A stretch of DNA of 64,000 nucleotides from Squalus acanthias. Its lineage: Eukaryota. Of the stretch, positions 49,272 through 64,000 are shown piece by piece. Under the pieces are notes generated by a model, which saw only the letters and a list, made by a program, of their open reading frames with translations, ran no database searches and was not told the origin of the DNA. A program made the translations under genes and the position numbers. The stretch is from NCBI GenBank assembly GCA_030390025.1, contig CM059431.1:96288001-96352000 (forward strand), read 5' to 3'. How positions within the stretch are numbered: position 1 is the first letter of the stretch; every line of letters begins with the position of its first letter.

Positions 49272-52200
49272 GTTCTATTCAGTTTCCAACTTGTTCCAGT
49301 CCAAATCAAATCCAATATTCAGTTTCCAATCCTTTCCAGTCCAATTCAATACAATATTCAGTTTCCAATGCATTTCAGTCCTGTTCAATCCAATACTCAG
49401 TTTCCAATCTGCTCAATTCCAATTAAATACAATACTCAGTTTCCAATCCGTTCAATTCCAATTCAACCCAATACTCAGTTTCCAATTCGTTCCAGTCCAG
49501 CTGAATCCACTACTCAGTTTTCAATTTGATCCTGTCCAATTCATTGCAATATTCAGTCCCAATCTGTTCCATTCCAATTCAGCCCAGTACTCAGTTTCCA
49601 ATTCATTCCAGTCCAATTCAATCCATTGCTCAGATTCCAAATTGTTCCAGTCCAATTCAATACAATATTAAGCTTCCAATCCATTCCATTCCAATTCAAT
49701 ACAATACTCAGTTTACCATCCGTTCCATTCCAATTCAATTCAATACTCAGTTTCTACTTTGTTCCATTCCAATTCAATCCAATACTCACTTTCCAATCTG
49801 TTCCATTCCAATTCAAGCCAAAACTCAGTTTCCAATTCGTTCCAGTTCAATTCAGTTCACTACTCAGTTTCCAACGGTTCCAGTCAAATTAAATCCAATA
49901 CTCAGGTTCAAATCAATTCCATTCCAAATCCATACAATACTCAGTTTCTAATTTGTTCCAGTCCAATTCAATCGAATACTCAGTTTCCAATTCATTCCAG
50001 TCCAAGTCAATCCAATACTCAGTTTCCATTCCTTTCCAGTCCTATTCAATCCAATACTCAGTTCCCAATCCGTTCCATTCCAATTCAACCTAATACACAG
50101 TTTCCAATTCATTCCAGTCCAAGTCAATCCAATACTCAGTTTCCAATCCGTTCCATTCCAATTCAACCCAATACTCAGTTTCCAATTCGTTCCAGTACAA
50201 TTCAACCCTATGTTCAGTTTCCAAACCTTTCCAGTACAATTCAACCCAATGTTCAGTTTCCAAACCTTTCCAGTACAATTCAACCCAATGTTCAGTTTCC
50301 AAACCTTTCCAGTCCAACTCAATCCAGTACTCAGTTTCCAATCTGTACCATTCCAATTTTGCCAAATACTCAGATTACAATTCATTCCAGTCCAATTAGA
50401 TCCAATACTCAGTTTCCAATTCGTTACATTCCAATTTAATCCACTACTCTGATTCCAATTCATTCCAGTCAAATTCAATCCAATATTCAGTTTCCAATCC
50501 GTTGCAGTACAATTAAATCCAACACTCAGTTTCCAATGTGTTCCAGCCAAATTCAATCCAACACTCAGTTTCCAATCCATTCCATTCCAATTCAATCCAA
50601 TACTCAGTTTCCAATTCGTTCCAGTCCAATTCAATCCAATACTCAGTTTCCCATGCATTCAAGTCCTGTTCAATCCAATACTCAGTTTCCAATCCGCTCC
50701 AATCCAATTCAATTCATTACTCAGTTTCCAATCCGCTCCAATCTAATTCAATCCAATACTCAGTTTCCAATCTGTTCCATTCCAATTTAATCCAATATTC
50801 AGAAACAATTCATTCCAGTCCAATTCAATCCAATACTCAGTTTCCAATCTGTTCCATTCCAATTTAATCCAATATTCAGAAACAATTCATTCCAGTCCAA
50901 TTCAATCCAATACTCAGTTTCCAATACTTTCAAGTCCAATTTAATCCAATATTCAGTGTCCAATTCGTTCCAGTCCAACTCAATCCAATACACAGTTTCC
51001 AATCCATTCCATTCCAATTCAACCCAATACTTAGATCCCAATTCAAACCAGTCCAATTCAATCCAATACTCAGTTTCCAATCCTTTCCAGACCAATTCAA
51101 TCCAACATTCAGTTTACAATGCCTGTTCAATCCAATTCTCAGTTTCAAGTCCGTTCCATTCCAATTCAACCCAATACTCAGTTTCCAATTCGTTCCAGTC
51201 CAATTCAATCCAATATTCAGTTTTCAAACCTTTCCAGTCAATTCAATCCAATACTCAATTTCCAATGCGTTCCAGTCCTGTTCGATCCAATATTCCGTTT
51301 CCAATCCACTCTATTCCAATTCAAAACAATACTCAGTTTCCAATCCGTTCCATTCCAATTCAACCCAATACTCAGTTTGCAATCTGTTCCATTCCAATGT
51401 AATCCAATATTCAGAACTAATTCATTCCAGTCCAATTCAATCCAATACTCAGTTTCCAATCCGTTCCATTCCAATTCAATACAATACAGTTTCCAATCCA
51501 TTCCATTCCAATTCAACCCAATACTTATATCCCAATTCAATCCATTCCAATTCAACCCAATACTTATATCCCAATTCAATCCAGTCCAATTCAATCCAAT
51601 ACTCAGTTTCCAATCCTTTCCAGTCCAATTCAAGCCAACATTCAGTTTCCAATGCATTTCAGTCCTGTTCAATCCAATTCTCAGTTTCAAATCCGCTCCA
51701 TTCCAAGTCAATCCAATACTCAGTTTCCAATTCATTGCAGTCCAACTCAGTCCAGTAGTCTGTTTCCAATCCGTTCCATTCCAATTTAATCCAATACTCA
51801 GATTCCAATTCATTCCAGACAAATTCAATCCAATACTTAGTTTCCAATCCGTTCCAGTACAATTAAATCCAACACTCAGTTTCCAATGCGTTGCAGTCCA
51901 GCTGAATCCAATACTCAGTTTTCTATTTGTTCCTGTCCAATTCATTCCAATACTCAGTTCCCAATCCGTTCCATTCCGATTCAACCCAGTACACAGTTTC
52001 CAAGTCGTTTCAGTCCAATTCAATCCAATGCTCACTTTCCAATCCGTTCCATTCTAATACAAACCAAAACTCAGTTTCCAATTCATTCCAGTTCAATTCA
52101 ATTCACTACTCAGTTTCCAATCGGTTCCAGTCAAATTCAATCCAATACTCAGGTTCAAATCCATTCTATTCCAAATCCATACAATAATCAGTTTCTAATT

Positions 52201-55200
52201 TGCTATATTCCAATTCAATCCAATACTCAGGTTCCAATCATTTCCAGTCCAATTCAATACAATATTCAGTGTCCAATTTGTTCCAGTCCAAATCAACCCA
52301 ATACTCAGTTTCCAATCCGTTCTATTCCAATCCAACGCAATACTCAATTTCCAATCCTTTCCAATCCAAATCAACACAATACACAGTTTCCAGTTCGTTC
52401 CATTCCAATTTAATCTATTACTCAGTTTCCAATTCGTTCCAGTCCTGTTCAATCCAATACTCAGTTTCCAATCCACTCCATTCCAATTCAAAACAATACT
52501 GAGTTACCAATCCATTGCATTCCAATCCAACCCAATACTCAGTTTCCAAGTCGTTCCATTCCAATTCATGCAATACTCACTTTCCAATTCGTTCCAGTTC
52601 AATTCAATTCACTACTCAGTTTCCAATTGGTTCCAGTCAAATTCAATCCAATACTCAGGTTCAAATCCATTCATTTCCAAATCCATACAATACTCAGTTT
52701 CTTATTTGCCCTATTCCAATTCAATCCAATACTCAGTTTGCAATCCGTTCCAATCCAATTCAATATAATATTCAGTTTCCAAACTTTTCCAGTCAATTCA
52801 ATCCAATACTCAGTTTCCCATGCATTCATAGAAACATAGAAACATAGAATCTAGGAGCAGGAGTAGGCCATTCGGCCCATCGAGCCTGCTCCACCATTCA
52901 ATACGATCATGGCTGATCATCCAAATCCAGTACCCTGTCCCTGCTTTAATCCCCACAGTACACATATCCCATCCTATCCCCATAACCCCACATATTTAAT
53001 CCCCCCCTAACACTAAGGGTCAATTTATCATAGCCAAATCAACCTAACCCGCACATTCCAGTCCTGTTCAATCCAATACGCAGTTTCCAATCTGCTCCAT
53101 TCCAATTCAATACAATACTCAGTTTCCAATCTGCTCCATTCCAATTCAATACAATACTCAGTTCCCAATTCATTCCAGTCCAAGTCAATCCAATACTTAG
53201 TTTCCAATTCGTTCCAGTCCAATTCATTCCAATACTCAGTTTCCAATACATTCCAGTCCAATTCAAACAAGTACTCAGTTTCCAATCTGTATCATTCCAA
53301 TTTAATCCAATACTCAGATTCCAATTCATTCCAGTCCAATTTAATCCAATACTCAGTTTTCAATTCGTTCCAGTCCAACTCAGTCCAGTACACAGTTTCC
53401 AATCTGTTCCATTCCAATTTAATCGACTACTCTCGTTCCAATTCATTCCTGTCAAATTCAATCCAATACTCAGTTTCCAATCCGTTCCAGTACAATTAAT
53501 TCCAACACTCAGTTTCCAATGCGTTCCAGTCCAGCTGTATCAATATTTAGTTTTCAATTCATTCCTGTCCAATTCAATCCAATACTCAGTTTCCAATCTG
53601 TTCATTCCAATTCAATCCAATACTCAGTTTCCAATCTGTTCCATTCCAATTCAATCCAATACTCAGTTTCCAATCTGTTCCATTCCAATTCAATCCAATA
53701 CTCAGTTTCCAATTCGTTCCCGTCTAATTCAATCCAATACTCAGTTTTCCATGCAATCCAGTCCAATTCAATACAATACTCAGTTTCCAATCCGCTCCAG
53801 TCTAATTCAATCCAATACTCAGTTTCCCATGCATTCCAGTCCTGTTCAATCCATTACTCAGTTTCCAATCCGCTCCAGTCCAATTCAATCCAATACTCAG
53901 TTTCCAATTCGTTCCATTCCAATTCAATACAATACTCAGTTTCCAATCTGTTCCATTCCAATTTAATCCAATATTCAGAACCAATTCATTCCAGTCCAAT
54001 CCAATCCAATACTCAGTTTCCAATCCGTTCCAGTCCAATTCAATCCAATATTCAGTGTCCAATTCGTTCCAGTCCAACTCAAACCAATACTCAGTTTCCA
54101 ATCCGTTCTATTCCAATCCAACTCAATACTCAATTTCCAATCCATTCCAATCGAATTCAACACAATACACAGTTTCCAGTTCGATCCAGTCCAATTAAAT
54201 CCAATACTCAGTTTCCAAATCGTTCCAGACCAATTCCATCCAATACTAACTTTTAAATCCGTTCCGTTCCAATTCAATCCAATACTCAGTTTCCAATACA
54301 TTCCAGTCCAACTCAATATTGTACTCAGTTTTCAATCTGGTCCATTCCAATTTAATCCAATACTCTGATTCCAATTCATTCCAGTCCAATTCAATTCAAT
54401 ACTCAGTTTCCAATTAGTTCCAGTCCAACTCAGTCCAGTACTCAGTTTCCAATCCGTTCCATTCCAATTTAATCCAATACTCAGATTCCAATTCATTCCA
54501 GTCAAATTCAATACAATACTTAGTTTCCAATCCGTTCCAGTACAATTAAATCCAACACTCAGTTTCCAATGCGTTGCAGTCCAGCTGAATCCAATACTCA
54601 GTTTTCTATTCGGCCCTGTCCATTTCATTCCAATACTCAGTTCCCAATCCGTTCCATTCCAATTCAAACAAGTACTCAGTTTCCAAGTCGTTCCAGTCCA
54701 ATTCAATCCAATACTCAGATTCCAATTCGTTACAGTCCATTTCAATCCAATACTGACTTTCCAATCCGTTCCATTCCAATTCAAACCAAAACTAAATTTC
54801 CAATTCGTTCCAGTTCAATTCAATTCACTACTCAATTTCCAATCGGTTCCAGTCAAATTCAATCTAATACTCAGGTTCAAGTCCATTCCATTCCAAATTC
54901 ATACAATACTCAGTTTCTAATTTGTCCTATTTCAATTCAATCCAATACTCAGTTTGCAATTCGTTCCAGTCCAATTCAATCCAATATTCAGTTTCCAAAC
55001 CTTTCCAGTCAATTTATTCCAATATTCAGTTTCCAATGCATTCCAGTCCTGTTCGATGCTATACTCAGTTTCCATTCCGCTCCATTCCAATTCAAAACAA
55101 TACTCAGTTTCCAATCCGTTGTATTCCAATTCAAACCAATACTCAGTTTCCAATTCGTTCCAGTCCATGTCAATCCAATATGCAGTTTCCAATTAGTTCC

Positions 55201-56964
55201 AGTCCAACTAAATGCATTTCTCAGTTTCCAATCCGTTCCTTTCCCATTCAACCCAATACTCAGTTTCCAATTCGTTCCAGAATAATTCAATCCAAAACTC
55301 AGTTTCCAATCCGTTCCAGTCCAATTCAATCCAATATTCAGTGTCCAATTCGTTCCAGTCCAACTCAAACCAATACTCAGTTTCCAATCCGTTCTATTCC
55401 AATCCAACTCAATACTCAATTTCCAATCCATTCCAATCGAATTCAGCACAATACACAGTTTCCAGTTTGATCCAGTCCAATTAAATCCAATACTCAGTTT
55501 CCAAATCGTTCCAGACCAATTCCATCCAATACTAACTTTTAAATCCGTTCCATTCCAATTCAATCCAATACTCAGTTTCCAATACATTCCAGTCCAACTC
55601 AATATAGTACTCAGTTTTCAATCTGGTCCATTCCAATTTAATCCAATACTCTGATTCCAATTCATTCCAGTCCAATTCAATTTAATACTCAGTTTCCAAT
55701 TAGTTCCAGTCCAACTCAGTCCAGTACTCAGTTTCCAATCCGTTCCATTCCAATTTAATCCAATACTCAGATTCCAATTCATTCCAGTCAAATTCAATAC
55801 AATACTTAGTTTCCAATCCGTTCCAGTACAATTAAATCCAACACTCAGTTTCCAATGCGTTGCAGTCCAGCTGAATCCAATACTCAGTTTTCTATTCGGC
55901 CCTGTCCAATTCATTCCAATACTCAGTTCCCAATCCGTTCCATTCCAATTCAAACAAGTACTCAGTTTCCAAGTCGTTCCAGTCCAATTCAATCCAATAC
56001 TCAGATTCCAATTCGTTACAGTCCATTTCAATCCAATACTGACTTTCCAATCCGTTCCATTCCAATTCAAACCAAAACTAAATTTCCAATTCGTTCCAGT
56101 TCAATTCAATTCACTACTCAATTTCCAATCAGTTCCAGTCAAATTCAATCTAATACTCAGGTTCAAGTCCATTCCATTCCAAATTCATACAATACTCAGT
56201 TTCTAATTTGTCCTATTTCAATTCAATCCAATACTCAGTTTGCAATTCGCTCCAGTCCAATTCAATCCAATATTCAGTTTCCAAACCTTTCCAGTCAATT
56301 TATTCCAATATTCAGTTTCCAATGCATTCCAGTCCTGTTCGATGCTATACTCAGTTTCCATTCCGCTCCATTCCAATTCAAAACAATACTCAGTTTCCAA
56401 TCCGTTCTATTCCAATTCAAACCAATACTCAGTTTCCAATTCGTTCCAGTCCATGTCAATCCAATACGCAGTTTCCAATTAGTTCCAGTCCAACTAAATG
56501 CATTTCTCAGTTTCCAATCCGTTCCTTTCCAATTCAACCCAATACTCAGTTTCCAATTCGTCCCAGAATAATTCAATCCAAAACTCAGTTTCCAATACAT
56601 TCCAGTCCAACTCAATCCAGTACTCAGTTTCCAATCTGTTCCATTCCAATTTAATCCAATACTCAGCTTCCAATTCATTCCATTCGAATTCAATCCAATA
56701 CTCAGTTTCCAATTCATTCAAGTCCAACTCAGTCCAGTACTCAGATTTCAATCCATCCCATTCCAATTCAAGCCAATACTCAGTTTCCAATCCCTTCCAT
56801 TCCAATACTCAGTTTCCCATGCATTCCAGTCCTCTTCAATCCAATACTCAGTTTCCAATCCGTTCTATTCCAATCCAACTCAATACTCAATTTCCAATCC
56901 ATTCCAATCGAATTCAACACAATACACAGTTTCCAGTTTGATCCAGTCCAATTAAATACAATAC
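49272..56964. repeat. Satellite array, 39-bp monomer (~TACTCAGTTTCCAATCCGTTCCATTCCAATTCAATCCAA)
   Basis: Direct tandem periodicity; translations repeat every 13 aa (LSIGLNWNGTDWK). Confidence 0.97.
52828..53053 (-). mobile_element. Short chimeric retroposon insertion in the satellite (CR1 tail plus a SINE-like segment)
   Basis: CATAGAAA repeats and GGAGTAGGCCATTCGGCCC as at ~44200; CATTC duplicated at 52823-27 and 53054-58. Confidence 0.8.
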
Positions 56965-58635
56965 TGTAGAATTCGCAATATATCGCGATTTTATTAATAA
57001 GGAGAAAAACACAGAGTTTCGTTCAAACAGCTTTTATTTCAGCAGAATGCTGTCAGGTTTCAAAGTGGACACAAGCAGTTTGTAAAATGGCCGCCGCACC
57101 TCGTGGCGGAACATTCTAGACCTTTCAACAGGCAGACAAGATGGCGTTCCAATAAACATTTGTGCAAGATCGATTAAGATTCAGCACATTGAAGATAATA
57201 CACGAGACATCATGGGTTTGCAGTATACACATAGATACTGAAATCGGTCTCCCGGGTACGAATAAAGGCTATTGTATCAAGTAATCAAGGGCCCATCCAA
57301 AGACATTAATATGTAAAATCCCAACGACTCTACGATGAGAGAGCCGTTAGCGGGTAGTTACAGAAAACACTTGGAGGCCCCAAAACCCCTCCAGGGAGAA
57401 CACCGACCGATTAAACAATGGGAGAAATATTAACAGGTACTCAGACATTTACGAGTAGCCCCGAAACCCATTAAAACCGGAGATCACCTATACAAGACAT
57501 TTGAGCGCCAAACCCTAACAAAAGGAAAAGACATTAAGGTTGGGCGGGAAACGGAAGATTTTGTACTATAATTACAAGCTCCAACCGTCCATCTCTCTCT
57601 TATCTTGCTGGTGTTCATCCTCGTGGCTGCTCCTGTGTTCTTGACTCGCCGTCTTGTTCCTGTTTGCCTGGTGTCTCTTTTAAAAGACTGTTGAACTTTG
57701 TGATCCGTTCGGATCTACCTCGTGTCGTGTCACGAAGACCTGTGTTGGTAACCGGCATCGGAACCAAAGGCCCGAGAAGAGATGAGATGAGAAGAGACGA
57801 AGACCATACTTATCGCCACGGTCAGTAAGCCCCGACCGCGCCTGTAGGTCGAATAGACAATTTTCCTTGCCAGGAAGACTTCTTTGAACTTTAAAGAACG
57901 GACCCCAGAAGATTCTTCTTTGAGGTATTGACTGGTCTGTGAAACCCATCAGGGCAGATCCTCATGACGAACACCGAGAGATTATTCTCTTAAGTGTTGA
58001 CTGGTACGTGAAACCCACAAACACAGATCTTCATAACAACAGACGTTCCAGCCTGCTAGCCGGAGCAGAAGCAAGTAAACAAGTGGGGCCAGGAGACCCC
58101 CTGATCGACACGTGGGTGCTGCGGTGAAAACATCCGATCAGCTATTCGGAATTTCTCCGAGTTATCACGAGTGGTGAGCATGAGTCTCGAATCCTACGAA
58201 TCTAGCTAGGACAGATATTGATAGGGGAGGGTTTAAGTACTAAGGATAATTGTAATGTGTGCCCCCATTTACGGTGTGTCGTTCGTTCCTCGTTTCCCTA
58301 GAATTAGTTACATAACTGCGTGTAAGATTGTACTGTCATTAATCTGTGCTTATGACATGTATTTCGTAATCTTAAACATTATGCAATAAAGATTTTCCAT
58401 TTCGTACCATTCAACCGAGTCTACATGAGTTTCATCTCCATTACTGCTCTCGCATCTAAGTCCAGTGTCTAGAACCGTAAGGGCGAGTGATTCGAACCAC
58501 TCACAGGTGTGTCTAGTGTTCCCAGACTGGCTGGAGACCAGAACAGGCAACAAGGCCTAAACCCGCACTGACATACAGGCTGCACAGAGCCACACGAATC
58601 TCACAGGCTGAGAGACACGCACGCAAACCCTTACA
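56965..58635 (+). repeat. Putative 5' LTR (~1671 bp)
   Basis: Starts TGTA exactly where the satellite stops and ends TACA 5 nt before the PBS; TATA-like TATAAT ~57568; AATAAA ~58386. No second LTR in the window. Confidence 0.75.
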
Positions 58636-58639
58636 GAAA

Positions 58640-60448
58640 ATGGCGACCGCGGCAGGACACTGGCAGCGAGAGGGTAGTGTGTTAGACTTTGGTGTGACGG
58701 TACGAAATGTTATGCAGGAAAAGATAGCAGATTATGTGTTCGGAAAGGTTAATCTAACTAAGAAATGGATAAGTGAATTGTTAGCGGATAAAAGTCCACT
58801 AGAGGCAGCCGAAAGGTGGACAGATAGTAAAGAACATAAAAAGACACTCGAGAAAGCAGTCTGGCTAATGTGTTACAAAAGGCAGGTCCAGATTTCAAAC
58901 CAGGTCATTACAGCGCTAACAGCTCGAATCAGTCATTTAGAGGGAGAAATGGATGAGAAGGTCTCTGGAGGGGAATTGCTCATTAGGAATTTAAGTGCGC
59001 TGCACCAAGAACGCCAGGAAATCTCCAGTCACCATAAAACAAGGATAGATTACCTCGAGTGCCAGGTCACTGAGGCAAAGTTAAATGAGGGCAGATTAAA
59101 GGAACGATGTGCCCGCCAAGCTGCCCAGATAAGAACTCAGGAAGAGAGCTTGACGGGGATTAGGGCGGCATATAAGTTGGCCCTTGAGGATAAGTTTCAG
59201 GGGGCCGATCATAGCGCCTGCCAAAAGGAGATAGAGCACCTCAAAAAGGCCGTGAACAAAGCGCACGGCATGGTGTGCCTTATCAGTCCGTCAGCACACC
59301 AGCCGCTAGTAAAAGAGGAGTTTCAGAAGTCCCCACCAAGTAAAGCAGAGGAAGTATTAGCCACTGCGCCCTCCGCGCCACCCAGCTATTCGGAAACCTG
59401 GGTAAGGGAGGAAGTAGTGGAAGAAACGAAAGAGCCCATTGAGAAAGAAGTGGAAAAGGGACCGTTGTATCCAGTAACGGGTATAAAAAGGGGCCCAAAC
59501 AGAAACGGTGGGGAGGAACCAGGGGATCTCCTCGGCCAGCTTGTGTTGCCTCACAGCTCACACCAGCTGAGAGTTATGATAAATCACGTACGGAAGCTAA
59601 CCGAGTTAGACGACCCTTCCGTACATTTCAGAGAAGTTGAGCAAACCGCAGCCATTAACGGCTGCGATGATGGGGAAACAGCAAAAATGCTGTTGTTTTC
59701 GTTAGGCAGTTCAATCCTTCAGTGTCTCTCGGGCGAGAGCAAGAGGGGAACCAAGACTTATGAGGCATTGAAGAATGAGGTCCTGGAAGTGTTGGGGGCG
59801 GACGATGAAGGTCCGTTTGGTAGAGTGGGACAAACAGTGCAGATGGAGGGAGAACCCCCGAAAGTTTTTGCCGACAGGCTGTGGCCAGTATATCAGCGCA
59901 GCTGTCTAGGTGCGCTAGAGCGCGACGATATGGACGGCGCCGGTTTAAATCATTGGCTTAGGTGCATAGTAGCCAACAGTTTACCAGCCGTCAGAGAGCA
60001 GGCAAAGGCATGGTTTGATCCCAATGACCCCAACATTACGGAAGAGTCGGTATTGAATCGACTCACGTTAGGATATCGCAATATAAGGGGTATGGGAACA
60101 CGTCCCCTTAAGGGAAAAGTACATGAGGTACGACCCGCAGCCCCGTATCAAAGGGAGTGGCATCAGGAGGGTAATCGCGCCCCGCAGGCAAGTAATGCTT
60201 GTTACGGGTGTGGGAAGACAGGGCACTGGCGCAAGAACTGCAGGAACCCTTGGAAGGATTCCAGGGATAAAATTCCCGCAGCCCGAGCCCAGACGCCTGT
60301 CCCTGCTAGGGAAGCTAGTGCACCCACCCCTCCCGACGACCTCGAATCAGTGTTGGGAGCCATGCGCAAATTATTGAGTGCACATGGAAAGGTGGCGGTT
60401 GCCACCGGCCCCGTAGGTGCCGCAGGACCGTCTAATAGTACCCAATGA
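58640..60448 (+). CDS. gag: Gag polyprotein (602 aa from first ATG)
   Basis: Coiled-coil region, PSAPPSY, capsid-like region, CCHC knuckle CYGCGKTGHWRKNC; directly follows LTR/PBS. Confidence 0.9.
   Translation: MATAAGHWQREGSVLDFGVTVRNVMQEKIADYVFGKVNLTKKWISELLADKSPLEAAERWTDSKEHKKTLEKAVWLMCYKRQVQISNQVITALTARISHLEGEMDEKVSGGELLIRNLSALHQERQEISSHHKTRIDYLECQVTEAKLNEGRLKERCARQAAQIRTQEESLTGIRAAYKLALEDKFQGADHSACQKEIEHLKKAVNKAHGMVCLISPSAHQPLVKEEFQKSPPSKAEEVLATAPSAPPSYSETWVREEVVEETKEPIEKEVEKGPLYPVTGIKRGPNRNGGEEPGDLLGQLVLPHSSHQLRVMINHVRKLTELDDPSVHFREVEQTAAINGCDDGETAKMLLFSLGSSILQCLSGESKRGTKTYEALKNEVLEVLGADDEGPFGRVGQTVQMEGEPPKVFADRLWPVYQRSCLGALERDDMDGAGLNHWLRCIVANSLPAVREQAKAWFDPNDPNITEESVLNRLTLGYRNIRGMGTRPLKGKVHEVRPAAPYQREWHQEGNRAPQASNACYGCGKTGHWRKNCRNPWKDSRDKIPAARAQTPVPAREASAPTPPDDLESVLGAMRKLLSAHGKVAVATGPVGAAGPSNSTQ
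58641..58658 (+). other. Primer binding site, tRNA-Arg(UCG)
   Basis: TGGCGACCGCGGCAGGAC is the reverse complement of GTCCTGCCGCGGTCG+CCA, the 3' end of vertebrate tRNA-Arg-TCG as recalled. Confidence 0.85.
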
Positions 60449-63400
60449 CTAGAGCCCGCGCAGCCCGTCTACCTGTGTCCGCTCAGCTATGATGCGTGGA
60501 AGCGACCTTTGGTGGAGATGGAGGTAGAGAAACAGAAGGGTAGTTATTTGTTGGACACGGGAGCTTCTTGCACCATAATCCATACAGATAGCCCTTTTGA
60601 CTCGCCGCTATCTACCAAGGTCCCATTCACATTAGCGGGGTTCACGGGAAAAGAACAGGCTGGCGCATTCTCCCTTCCGCTATCCATTCGTTTGGGAGCA
60701 CTTCACCTCAAGTGGAAGTGCATACTGATGGAATGGCAGGAGGGGGGTGGAAGAGGTATCCTCGGGTCCGATCTCCTATCAGGGCACGGGATCCTCGTGG
60801 ACCTCAGAAATCACTGTCTCTGGGGGGCTAAGAGTGAAAAAGGCGAGGTAGTAGTGATTCCGGGGGAGGAAGAAACAGGGGTCCTGTGTACCGTGCAGCC
60901 ATCCGGAGGCTACGACCTCGGGCTTATGGTCGCAGGTGTCCCAACGGACATGCAAACGTACGTGTCAGATAATATGCACGCGTTTGCAACCCACAAGCAC
61001 GATTGTGGGAGGGTTACCGGGTTTGAGGTCAGCGTAGATGGGGACCCCATGACCCGGCCCCAAAAACAGTATAACTTCCCCAAAGAAGCAGAACCCGATA
61101 TGGAGACAGCAATGTCCTCCTTGGTGCAGCAGGGCGTGTTGAGGCCGATAGCCACACACGTGAACTCCCCATTATGGCCGGTTAGGAAGCCGGATAATTC
61201 GTGGAGAGCCACGGTGGACTACAGAGTCCTTAACAGTAACATTCCCGCCTGCGCGCCCACGGTAGCAGCAGTTGCTGACCTAATAGGGAGTATCCCAGCG
61301 TCCGCGACCACGTTCACGGTGTTGGATATCTCGAACGGTTTTTGGTCCATCCCGCTGAGGCGAGAGGACCAGTACAAGTTTGCCTTTACTTTCAAAGGAC
61401 AACAGTACACATGGAACTGTCTGCCACAGGGTTTCCACAATAGCCCCAGTATTTTCCATCAGTGTATGGCAGGAAGTTTAAAGGAGTTTAGTCAGCCCAA
61501 TCAGATAGTGCAGTACGTGGATGATTTGCTCCTATTTACGGACTCAAGGGAGGAGCATGGACCACTGCTGGACGAGTTATTGGAGCTGCTAGCGAGAAAG
61601 GGTTTTAAAATAAATCCTAAGAAAGCACGTATCGGTCAGCAGGAAGTAAAATTCCTGGGACTGACCATTCGCGCTGGGGAAAGAGCCATAGACAAAGCTA
61701 GGAGGGAGTCGGTGCAAGAGTTACCGATTCCCAACAACATAAGGGGTGTGAGGTCCTTCTTGGGACTGACCGGTTACTGCAGGGATTTTATCGAAGACTA
61801 TGCGGCCACAGCGGCGCCGCTCCTCCGACTCCTCCATAAGGGAGTGGAGTGGTCTTGGGACGAGGGCTGCCAAGCAGCCTTCGAGAAGTTAAAAAGGGAT
61901 CTGCAGACCGCGCCAGCTTTAGGGGCCATAGATGGGGGGAAGGAGTTTTTCCTGGAGGTAGCTGCCAGCGGGGACAGCTTGAGCGCTGTGCTGCTCCAAG
62001 AGCGTCACGGCAAGCTGAGGCCGGTTGTCTATTCGTCCAGAGTGTTAACGGATGTGGAGAGAAGTTTCTCCAATTGCGAAAGGCACCTTTTAGCCACGCA
62101 TTGGGCTGTGAAAAGATCAGCGATCTTCACAGGGCTCTCTCCCATCACTCTCCTCACCCATCACACACCAACTAAGATGCTTCTAGATGGGAGGATTAAA
62201 GATGGGACCGTAAGCAGCGTGCGTATTGCGCGCTGGACCCTTCTTCTTTCCCAGATGGATCTTAAAGTAAAAGGTCTTTGCGAGCCCAGGCTTGCGGCCA
62301 ATTTGGTATACCCCGGTACAGCCCACCGATGTTCGGTGGAAGGGGTGTGGGACGTCAACATAGGTTTGCGGGCCGGGATACATCCCAATGGGCGCGAGAT
62401 TTATGTTGATGGGTCTAGCACAGTATCTGCTGGCGAACGACTCACAGGGTGTGGAGTTTATGACCCTGCGGCAAACCTTGCCCTGGCGATCAAGCTCCCT
62501 AGCACCATGAGCGCGCAGCAGGCTGAGCTGTCTGCCGTGGTGTACGTTGTTACCCACCCAGACATTTTCCCAACCCCATACACGATTTGCTCGGACAGTA
62601 TGTTCACCTGCAATTCGTGTACGGAATACCTGGCCATTTGGTCCCGCCGTGGATACACCTCCGCGGACGGGCGACCTTTAACGGTGAAGCCCTTGCTGGA
62701 AAAGATCTTAGCAGCAGCAGCAGGGGAGGAAGGGGAGATTTTCATCCATAAGGTGAAAGCTCACTCCTCCACAGAGCCCCGTGGGGAGGGCAACCAGCAG
62801 GCGGATGCGCTAGCCAGGGAAGGTGCCCGCAACGGCATTTTCTGGGACCCCTATGGGACCAGACCCATGGCAGCGATCCAAGGCAGGGACGGGAATCCCG
62901 GGAACACCAGGGTAGCATTGCCCCTAGACCTTAAGACCGTCCAAACCCAGGATCCCGCCCTAAAAGCAGTCCTAAAAACCATTGTTGAGGGGAAGCAGGT
63001 AGAAGGTCCGTACAGTACGGCAACCCTCTCAGTTAAGGAAGGCATGCTGTTCCGCGAGGAGCAGTGGGTTGTGCCGCAGCAGCACACGAGGGAATTCCTC
63101 CAGTTGGCTCACGAGGGACCAGGGGCAGGGCACCCCGGGCCCGAGGTTACCTGGCAACGGGTAGAGCAAGCGGGATGGTGGCCAGGGCTCAGGGAACAAG
63201 TCCGCGAGTTCTGTGCAAACTGTCTTGTGTGCGCTGCAAACAACCCAGACCCCCAGAAAAGGAAAGTGCCCATGGGACACGTAAGAAGGGTAGAGGGACC
63301 ATGGCAGTCGATACAGATCGACTATATAGGGCCCCTGCCTACCACCCAGGGAGGCTATAAATACTGCCTCGTCTTGGTGGATGTGTTTTCCAAGTGGGTG

Positions 63401-64000
63401 GAAGCCTTCCCCTGTCGAACAGCTTCGGCACTGGGTACTGCAAAAATCTTGGTCCGGGAAGTGTTCTCGCGGTGGGGACTCCCCCGTTTTGTGGAGTCAG
63501 ACCAAGGGAGTCATTTCACCGGCCAGGTGATGCAGAACACCCTCATGCTTTTGGGCATTGAAGGGAAGCGGCACGTAGCACACAATCCCCAGTCATCCGG
63601 GATTGTTGAACGCATGAACCGGACCCTGAAGGAGAAATTGAGGAAAGAGACTAGGAACTCGCCCCAAAAATGGGCGGAAGTTCTGCCTTTAGTCCTCATG
63701 GGGGTCCGGGCCAGTCAGTCAAAAAGTACGGGGTACTCCCCGCACGAGGTGATGACTGGGAGGCTCATGCGAACCCCCACCCATGTGCTAGCGCCGGTGC
63801 TCACTGAGGGTCAGCTCCAAGAGATAAGCAGGGACAAGTTCGCCCAGACCCTCTTGGAGCGCCTGAAGCAGGTTTATGAGCAGGCGGCTGGGAACATGGG
63901 AAGGCAGCATCAGGGCAATCGCCTGTTGCTGGAACCCCGCAAAACGCGGGAGTGGGAAGTAGGAGACCAGGTTATGGTCAGAAACTACGCCAGAGTAGGG
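60449..64000 (+). CDS. pol: Pol polyprotein (PR-RT-tether-RNase H-IN), same frame as gag, 3' incomplete
   Basis: Manual translation finds no stop in 1184 codons: LLDTGAS, GILGSD, NSPLWPVRK, LPQGFHNSP, YVDD, IYVDGS..AQQAEL..SDS..KVKAH..GNQQAD, HHCC, QIDYIG..SDQG..IVERMN. Confidence 0.95.

Follow-up and report, generated by a model that had tools for sequence, protein, structure and literature searches.

How does a retrovirus-like element make its enzymes when gag ends in a stop codon and pol has no start codon ahead of its protease domain? The question is raised by an element in a 64,000-nt stretch of the Squalus acanthias genome (GenBank assembly GCA_030390025.1, contig CM059431.1, positions 96,288,001 to 96,352,000 of the forward strand; called the window below, with all positions counted from its first letter). 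Here gag and pro-pol share one reading frame, interrupted by a single UGA that CUAG follows directly. Programmed readthrough of this UGA, giving a Gag-Pro-Pol polyprotein, is the best explanation that we can offer and, judged from sequence comparisons, a probable one.

According to the list of open reading frames (ORFs) and their translations, gag opens with ATG and has 602 codons; with its stop it occupies 58640-60448. Its end reads ACC CAA TGA CTA GAG CCC GCG, with TGA at 60446-60448 and CTAG at 60449-60452, exactly as described in the original prediction, which had been made from the letters of the window alone. The same prediction held that the frame continues without a stop through the protease motif LLDTGAS to the end of the window, and this was confirmed: translation of 58640-63999 in a single frame gives 1786 positions with one stop only, the TGA at 60446-60448, followed by 1183 open codons that run to the window end and span protease, reverse transcriptase (RT), RNase H and integrase. 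The D of LLDTGAS lies at 60554-60556 and the RT motif YVDD at 61514-61525, both in this frame. An open frame of 1183 codons behind a single stop is not a product of chance. The features that make up the junction are the following:

58640-60445, + strand: gag ORF, 602 codons; N-terminal half of coiled-coil character (by eye), C-terminal nucleocapsid part
60200-60241, + strand: CCHC zinc knuckle in Gag's nucleocapsid part (Pfam zf-CCHC over residues 520-535 of Gag; E 0.0035, which does not reach the curated cut-off)
60443-60445, + strand: last sense codon of gag, CAA (Gln); the two nucleotides before the stop, -1 and -2, are A
60446-60448, + strand: in-frame UGA, the proposed readthrough codon (from the sequence and the difference list of four sequencing runs)
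60449-60452, + strand: CUAG tetranucleotide directly 3' of the stop, the type II or vertebrate readthrough motif (from the sequence; motif function from PMC4132726 and PMC13517186)
60449-63999, + strand: pro-pol frame of 1183 codons, without a stop before the window ends (translation, Pfam)

The layout is that of readthrough systems, with one stop between gag and pro-pol in a common frame. The stop sits between the CCHC knuckle (60200-60241) and the protease DTG (60554-60562), the interval in which gamma- and epsilonretroviruses also carry theirs, according to the relevant part of PMC13517186. Within 60300-60800, the gag/pol frame contains this TGA alone and the other two frames contain seven and eight stops. 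With these frames closed at the junction, pol can be reached only in the frame of gag, and frameshifting is ruled out since pol already lies in that frame.

The beginning of pol is equally informative, and two features describe it:

60497-60715, + strand: retropepsin domain with the catalytic DTG at 60554-60562 (Pfam RVP; pol residues 17-89 against profile positions 2-73)
60518-60520, + strand: the sole in-frame ATG between the stop and DTG, pol residue 24, inside the protease domain

The RVP match thus begins at residue 17, and the only ATG comes at residue 24, 12 residues before the catalytic Asp. In retropepsins the N-terminal strand serves dimerisation, and a product initiated at residue 24 would lack that strand. 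Because the only ATG lies inside the protease domain, translation must enter pol from upstream.

The nucleotides around the stop point to how this could happen. The original prediction had regarded UGA-CUAG as a leaky context, a view that has experimental support: in HEK-293T reporters described in the accessible part of PMC4132726, readthrough reached 1.5% for UGA-CUA alone, ~3.5% for MDH1 and ~31% for OPRL1. According to the same source, readthrough is lost when CUAG is deleted, no stop codon works better with the motif than UGA, and 12 nt of 3' sequence are enough. A deep mutagenesis study, cited from the available portion of its text, places modulators as far as +27 and reports strong effects of the -1 codon (bioRxiv 10.64898/2026.07.14.738498, 2026). 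In the window, the hexanucleotide UGACUA with G at +7 is present at 60446-60452, which is the sequence that defines a type II signal in the cited parts of PMC13517186 and PMC4132726.

We propose that most ribosomes would stop at the UGA at 60446-60448 and release Gag, and that a minority, probably a few per cent, would decode it by a near-cognate tRNA and continue in frame, producing Gag-Pro-Pol. The leakiness would come mainly from the immediate context (CAA before, UGA, CUAG after), so that the signal would be of type II, as in Sindbis-like alphaviruses and the vertebrate genes OPRL1 and MDH1; a long hairpin from +13 may add to readthrough.

We then asked whether the stop is private to this copy. 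Parts of the window were found in sequencing runs of six organisms, belonging to nine studies. Sibling copies were surveyed in the contigs of four DNA-type runs (X1, X6, X8 and X10, from organisms A to D), aligned on 59900-61100 at 80% likeness. The numbers of aligned contigs (2010 in X1, 460 in X6, 51 in X8 and 95 in X10) indicate a very high-copy family. The survey is read as a list of differences from the window, not as the letters of the siblings, and what follows concerns the best-supported 40 of its 201 rows. Among them, 32 fall in 59930-60382, eight in 60632-61066 and none in 60383-60631. The spread is very uneven, with 32 rows over 453 nt of the 3' part of gag against none over the 249 nt around the stop and the start of the protease. 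Letters private to this copy do appear in the list: at 60007, 60052 and 60936, ~100% of the letters are other ones in all four runs. Since such private letters are listed elsewhere, a private TGA should have appeared likewise. The stop is therefore not private to this copy but common to its siblings, and the conservation of TGACTAG among copies, which the original prediction had named as a check on its proposal, is supported by the absence of the 40 best-supported differences (of 201) from 60383-60631 in the four runs. Two further letters of this copy, at 60273 and 61066, are nearly absent from the siblings.

The contigs also reveal a short block that more diverged relatives share:

60445-60480, + strand: 36-nt island common to sibling sub-families with unalignable flanks (from loose contig ends)

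Contigs that are unlike the window before 60445 number six in X1, two in X6 and two in X10, with one more in X8 at 60441; behind 60480 there are three in X6, one in X8 and three in X10. In X8, depth rises to 376 and 325 in the bins covering 60433-60514, against ~25 and ~14 beside them. The loose ends and this depth peak together indicate that diverged sub-families share an island of 36 nt, which starts at the A before TGA. Read in frame by eye, the loose stretches ahead of the island contain no stop, and their final codon, for Leu or Pro, takes the shared A as its last letter; those behind it are open in the pol frame. Both the reach of the modulators to +27 and the -1 codon, as defined by the mutagenesis cited above, fall within the island. 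Relatives at the DNA level were sought in public contigs as well. The Gag alignment (A1) found none in viral or metagenome contigs, the Pol alignment (A2) none in viral contigs, and a 22-nt pattern from the island had no match in metagenome contigs. In genome contigs, this 22-nt block had one exact match, in a Leifsonia genome (L001, 3001-3022), which we put down to chance in GC-rich DNA.

Protein relatives place the end of Gag at the same point. The Gag family is rare: a word-based search returned two matches and a full HMMER pass over 1.84 billion representatives returned 30, the sole named relative being an uncharacterised protein of the skate Rhinoraja longicauda. Two of the relatives can be aligned with the Gag of the window over their full length, P0001 at 52% identity and P0002 at 43-46%, and all three proteins end in the same final column with the same last residue, Q. 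A third, P0006 (35-39% identity), ends four residues further, and the more distant matches are too diverged to place. As far as these alignments reach, the position of the stop is conserved among Gag relatives. No protein was found to cross the junction. With the stop written as X, none of the five distinct matches in the near and longer length classes did so; in the HMMER pass, which gives the best stretch of each match only, none of the 30 did, the largest query end being 600 with the stop at position 603. Matches of Pol type begin at downstream methionines chosen by gene callers and are uninformative on the junction. Between them, the sibling differences (best 40 of 201) and the conserved Gag end in P0001, P0002 and P0006 led us to reject a private nonsense mutation.

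Folding the RNA downstream of the stop, which the original prediction had suggested as a further check, gave a divided answer. Counted from the stop, the first 130 nt form a less stable fold than their shuffles (z +1.67), and Rfam, searched over 57000-64000 at E <= 1, returned no readthrough or selenocysteine insertion sequence (SECIS) family, with one sub-threshold snoRNA match only. These two results, from folding without pseudoknot models, led us to reject a compact stimulator like that of murine leukaemia virus (MLV); together with the stop being UGA-C, they set the junction apart from type III, MLV-like signals. Longer windows gave a different picture, with an extended structure:

60452-60672, + strand: predicted rod-like hairpin of 82 base pairs (5' arm 60452-60564, 3' arm 60570-60672)

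The predicted hairpin starts at +7 (60452), and its GC-rich basal helix (60458-60465 with 60658-60666) starts at +13 from the U of UGA. For 60449-60700 the minimum free energy (MFE) is -99.5 kcal/mol, with z -4.1 against dinucleotide shuffles, and for 60457-60650 the z-score is -4.26. The same pairs recur in the MFE structures of contexts up to 60000-61200 (1.2 kb), with probabilities of 0.6-1.0. When synonymous codons were permuted, none of 300 permutations folded as well as the native sequence (z -4.18).

That this hairpin has a function in stimulating readthrough, as extended stem-loops do in alphaviruses and coltiviruses, is a sub-hypothesis of the readthrough proposal; on balance we would bet somewhat against it. 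In its favour are the z-scores of -4.1 to -4.3, the failure of all 300 permutations and the robustness of the pairs to 1.2 kb. The position also fits, with a GC-rich base at +13 where the active stem-loops of alphaviruses and coltiviruses start at +12/+16 and that of chikungunya virus at +9/+13; the source of these figures stresses consecutive G-C pairs at the base of the stem-loop (PMC13517186, in part). The conserved island forms the 5' base of the hairpin. Three of the listed sibling differences (best 40 of 201) fall inside it; two are unpaired and the third, G60646A, keeps its pair by turning U.G into U-A. Against such a role stand the comparably low z-scores elsewhere in the element, the divergence of the sub-families behind 60480, by which the long-range partner may not be conserved, and the ability of UGA-CUAG to work with only ~12 nt of 3' sequence (PMC4132726, in the part available).

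Several observations weigh against readthrough and have to be set beside the evidence for it. TGACTAG occurs four times in the window against 6.99 expected, so that the heptamer shows no enrichment, and it is its position, not its frequency, that matters. The first 130 nt behind the stop are less structured than their shuffles, as given above. Nor is the low z-score of the longer hairpin unique: the whole element tends to negative values, eight of 94 windows of 230 nt along it reach -3.48 or less (minimum -4.12), and the two 230-nt windows over the hairpin have -3.21 and -3.66. The protein relatives show the place of the stop only, neither the identity of their stop codon nor a pol in frame behind it. 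Minority copies with another letter at 60446-60452 are possible, the difference list being confined to its best 40 of 201 rows. Finally, readthrough outside gammaretroviruses, including the fish and amphibian UGA cases, is described as lacking experimental verification in the consulted part of PMC13517186. What the sequences show is the anatomy of the junction, a stop held in common by the copies and the conserved place at which Gag ends; that this stop is read through, at what level, and any contribution of the hairpin we infer. The proposal of the original prediction that Gag-Pol is made by UGA readthrough stands as the best-supported reading, given the stop in the siblings, its conserved position, the lack of a pol ATG ahead of the protease domain and the leaky context.

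The alternative that survives best, although we consider it unlikely, is that pol is translated from an mRNA of its own, produced by splicing as in foamy viruses, or by internal or non-AUG initiation, the UGA being an ordinary terminator. The integrase, which is most like that of prototype foamy virus (PFV), the presence of a foamy protease-RT among the best RT matches and the lack of a stimulatory structure directly behind the stop would all agree with it. Foamy-type expression involves a pol with its own ATG, a spliced mRNA and another frame, whereas gag and pol here lie in one frame, separated by a single stop of conserved position, with no ATG ahead of the protease domain and the sole ATG before DTG inside it. 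An ordinary terminator would moreover happen to stand in a context proven to be leaky (PMC4132726, as far as its text was available), and the surrounding nucleotides form a conserved island.

Still less probable is a defective TGA, in a dead copy or sub-family, with a sense codon (and hence a Gag-Pol fusion) or UAG at this place in those members of the family that are active. As an endogenous element it must have many dead copies, the relatives' proteins do not tell their stop codon, and the view of the siblings is limited to 40 of 201 rows. Within these rows, however, no well-supported other letter occurs in 60383-60631 in four runs from four organisms, though private letters are listed elsewhere; three Gag relatives end at the same place or at most four residues from it; none of the 30 and none of the five homologs cross the junction; and, this stop apart, both gag with its 602 codons and pol with its 1183 are intact.

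Decoding of the UGA as selenocysteine, for which UGA is the codon and for which the 3' part of the element, beyond the window, could hold a SECIS, can practically be set aside in view of the absence of any SECIS by Rfam in 57000-64000 at E <= 1, the CUAG after UGA, which is a context for near-cognate readthrough (PMC4132726, in part), and the absence of a retroviral precedent in the literature searched.

Programmed UGA readthrough is thus the reading with which we turn to the nature of the element. Behind the stop, Pfam domains follow in the order RVP, RVT_1, RT_RNaseH, RNase_H, Integrase_H2C2 and rve. In addition to the protease listed above, the pol frame contains:

61181-61669, + strand: reverse transcriptase domain with YVDD at 61514-61525 (Pfam RVT_1, E 3.6e-36)
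61937-62827, + strand: tether (RT_RNaseH, 61937-62254) and then second RNase H (62396-62827) (Pfam, E 8.4e-18 and E 4.4e-20)
63071-63589, + strand: integrase zinc-binding and catalytic core domains (Pfam Integrase_H2C2, E 6e-17; rve, E 2.3e-14)

Among solved structures, the best relative of RT-RNase H is the RT of xenotropic MLV-related virus (XMRV)/MLV, which matches over its whole length (E 1.2e-68, residues 205-797); over the RT part Ty3 scores equally, and a foamy protease-RT comes next. The integrase is closest to that of PFV (E 8.4e-34). A double RNase H, made of a tether and a second RNase H, is a hallmark of retroviruses. On its domain sequence, the architecture of protease, RT, tether, second RNase H and integrase would fit Retroviridae over a Ty3/Gypsy long terminal repeat (LTR) retrotransposon. 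In Gag, the zinc knuckle is the sole Pfam match, and its C, C, H and C are invariant in an alignment of nine sequences (A3). Language-model features of Gag resemble Ty3/Retrotrans_gag capsid clusters (score 0.92), which we treat as a lead only. The N-terminal third of Gag (residues 1-220, 58640-59300) resembles a long coiled coil by eye; it is conserved in P0001 and P0002 and matches no Pfam family.

The window ends inside pol, past the core domain of integrase, so that the 3' LTR and any env gene lie beyond it. No second copy of the element was found within the window by blastn or tblastn, and no tRNA genes, which were sought for a check of the primer-binding site, were found in the window. 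Upstream of gag, an AATAAA at 58385-58390, 250 nt before the ATG, is a candidate polyadenylation signal of a 5' LTR. In the untranslated region at 57910-58041, a 69-nt unit is repeated in tandem (1.9 copies, 76% matches), perhaps as a repeat of an LTR or of the leader. The element is immediately preceded, at 49279-56965, by a 7.7-kb satellite array (39-nt unit, 198 copies, 76% matches), and the long ORFs that this array presents on both strands were discarded as repeat artefacts.

How does this junction compare with known ones? The original prediction had called UGA readthrough unusual for a vertebrate retrovirus-like element, which was overstated, and its account of retroviral strategies (UAG readthrough, frameshifting or splicing) was incomplete, since UGA junctions are in print. 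A 2026 review reports, in the part accessible to us, UGA at the gag-pro junction of the swim bladder sarcoma virus of salmon (SSSV; UGAAGA), zebrafish endogenous retrovirus (ZFERV; UGACGA) and a cane-toad endogenous retrovirus (ERV; UGAAGU) (PMC13517186); XtERV-S of Xenopus has TGA at its junction (PMC8278194, likewise in part). In these four, too, a single UGA divides gag from pro-pol within a common frame, and readthrough is presumed for them in the cited portions of the two papers. The in-frame UGA readthrough design is therefore already known from retroviruses of aquatic vertebrates. What differs is the context, UGACUAG here against UGAAGA, UGACGA and UGAAGU in SSSV, ZFERV and the toad ERV, a comparison of reported contexts and not of sequence kinship. 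The accessible part of PMC13517186 lists UGACUA in animal viruses, for example chikungunya virus, Sindbis virus and PSIV, and lists no retrovirus with it. We found no retroviral UGA-CUAG in the open-access literature searched, which is not proof of absence, and the parts of three papers on shark and fish ERVs that we consulted (PMC4422223, PMC4977317 and PMC10699275) contain no passage on junction stop codons. Among the retroviral cases found, the novelty thus lies in a UGA-CUAG context of type II, to which an extended stem-loop may belong.

MLV and the other gammaretroviruses resemble the element in gene order, in their single frame, in the stop between the nucleocapsid knuckle and DTG and in an RT that is the most similar among solved structures. 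They differ in the signal, which in MLV is UAG-G with a purine-rich spacer of 8 nt and a compact pseudoknot of the H type (PMC13517186, in the part available), whereas the element has UGA-C, no Rfam match and no local structure. Walleye dermal sarcoma virus (Epsilonretrovirus) is likewise a fish retrovirus with its stop at the end of the nucleocapsid and with readthrough that is unverified, but the same source deals with it, in the portion consulted, in the context of UAG readthrough by retroviruses, no cis element being known, and the element has UGA-CUAG.

The nsP3/nsP4 junction of Sindbis-like alphaviruses shares the hexanucleotide UGA-CUA, and its stop, too, precedes the enzyme portion of a polyprotein. 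In Middelburg, chikungunya, Ross River and Getah viruses, UGA-CUA is also followed by G (PMC4132726, from its available text), and the extended stem-loop downstream in alphaviruses is conditionally stimulatory (PMC13517186, likewise). Family and proteins are unrelated, so that the resemblance would be convergent, and the hairpin in the element is only predicted. It is conceivable, although we would count it as doubtful, that a retrovirus-like family of cartilaginous fishes converged on the complete alphavirus-type module, UGA-CUAG with a long GC-based stem-loop at +13, in place of the UAG and pseudoknot of gammaretroviruses. If true, this would be the first retroviral example of a type II signal. 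The element could show whether early-branching vertebrate retroelements use readthrough driven by context and not by a pseudoknot, without implying any new principle. Made up of an island of 36 nt and, optionally, a long hairpin, the signal is compact and directly testable, and thousands of near-identical copies in several host species offer natural variation to mine.

The closest functional parallels are the vertebrate genes OPRL1, OPRK1, AQP4, MAPK10 and MDH1, whose UGA-CUAG is read by vertebrate ribosomes. MDH1 reads UGACUAGAC (PMC13517186, in part) and the element UGACUAGAG. In such genes ~12-27 nt of 3' sequence are enough (PMC4132726 and bioRxiv 10.64898/2026.07.14.738498, in the parts cited), which fits an island of 36 nt. 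They add short C-terminal tails to their products, whereas the extension in the element is an enzyme polyprotein of >1180 residues. The element thus pairs a retroviral junction with the best-characterised leaky context of vertebrates and, if it is indeed read through, one motif of the vertebrate ribosome would serve a host gene, an RNA virus and a retroelement alike.

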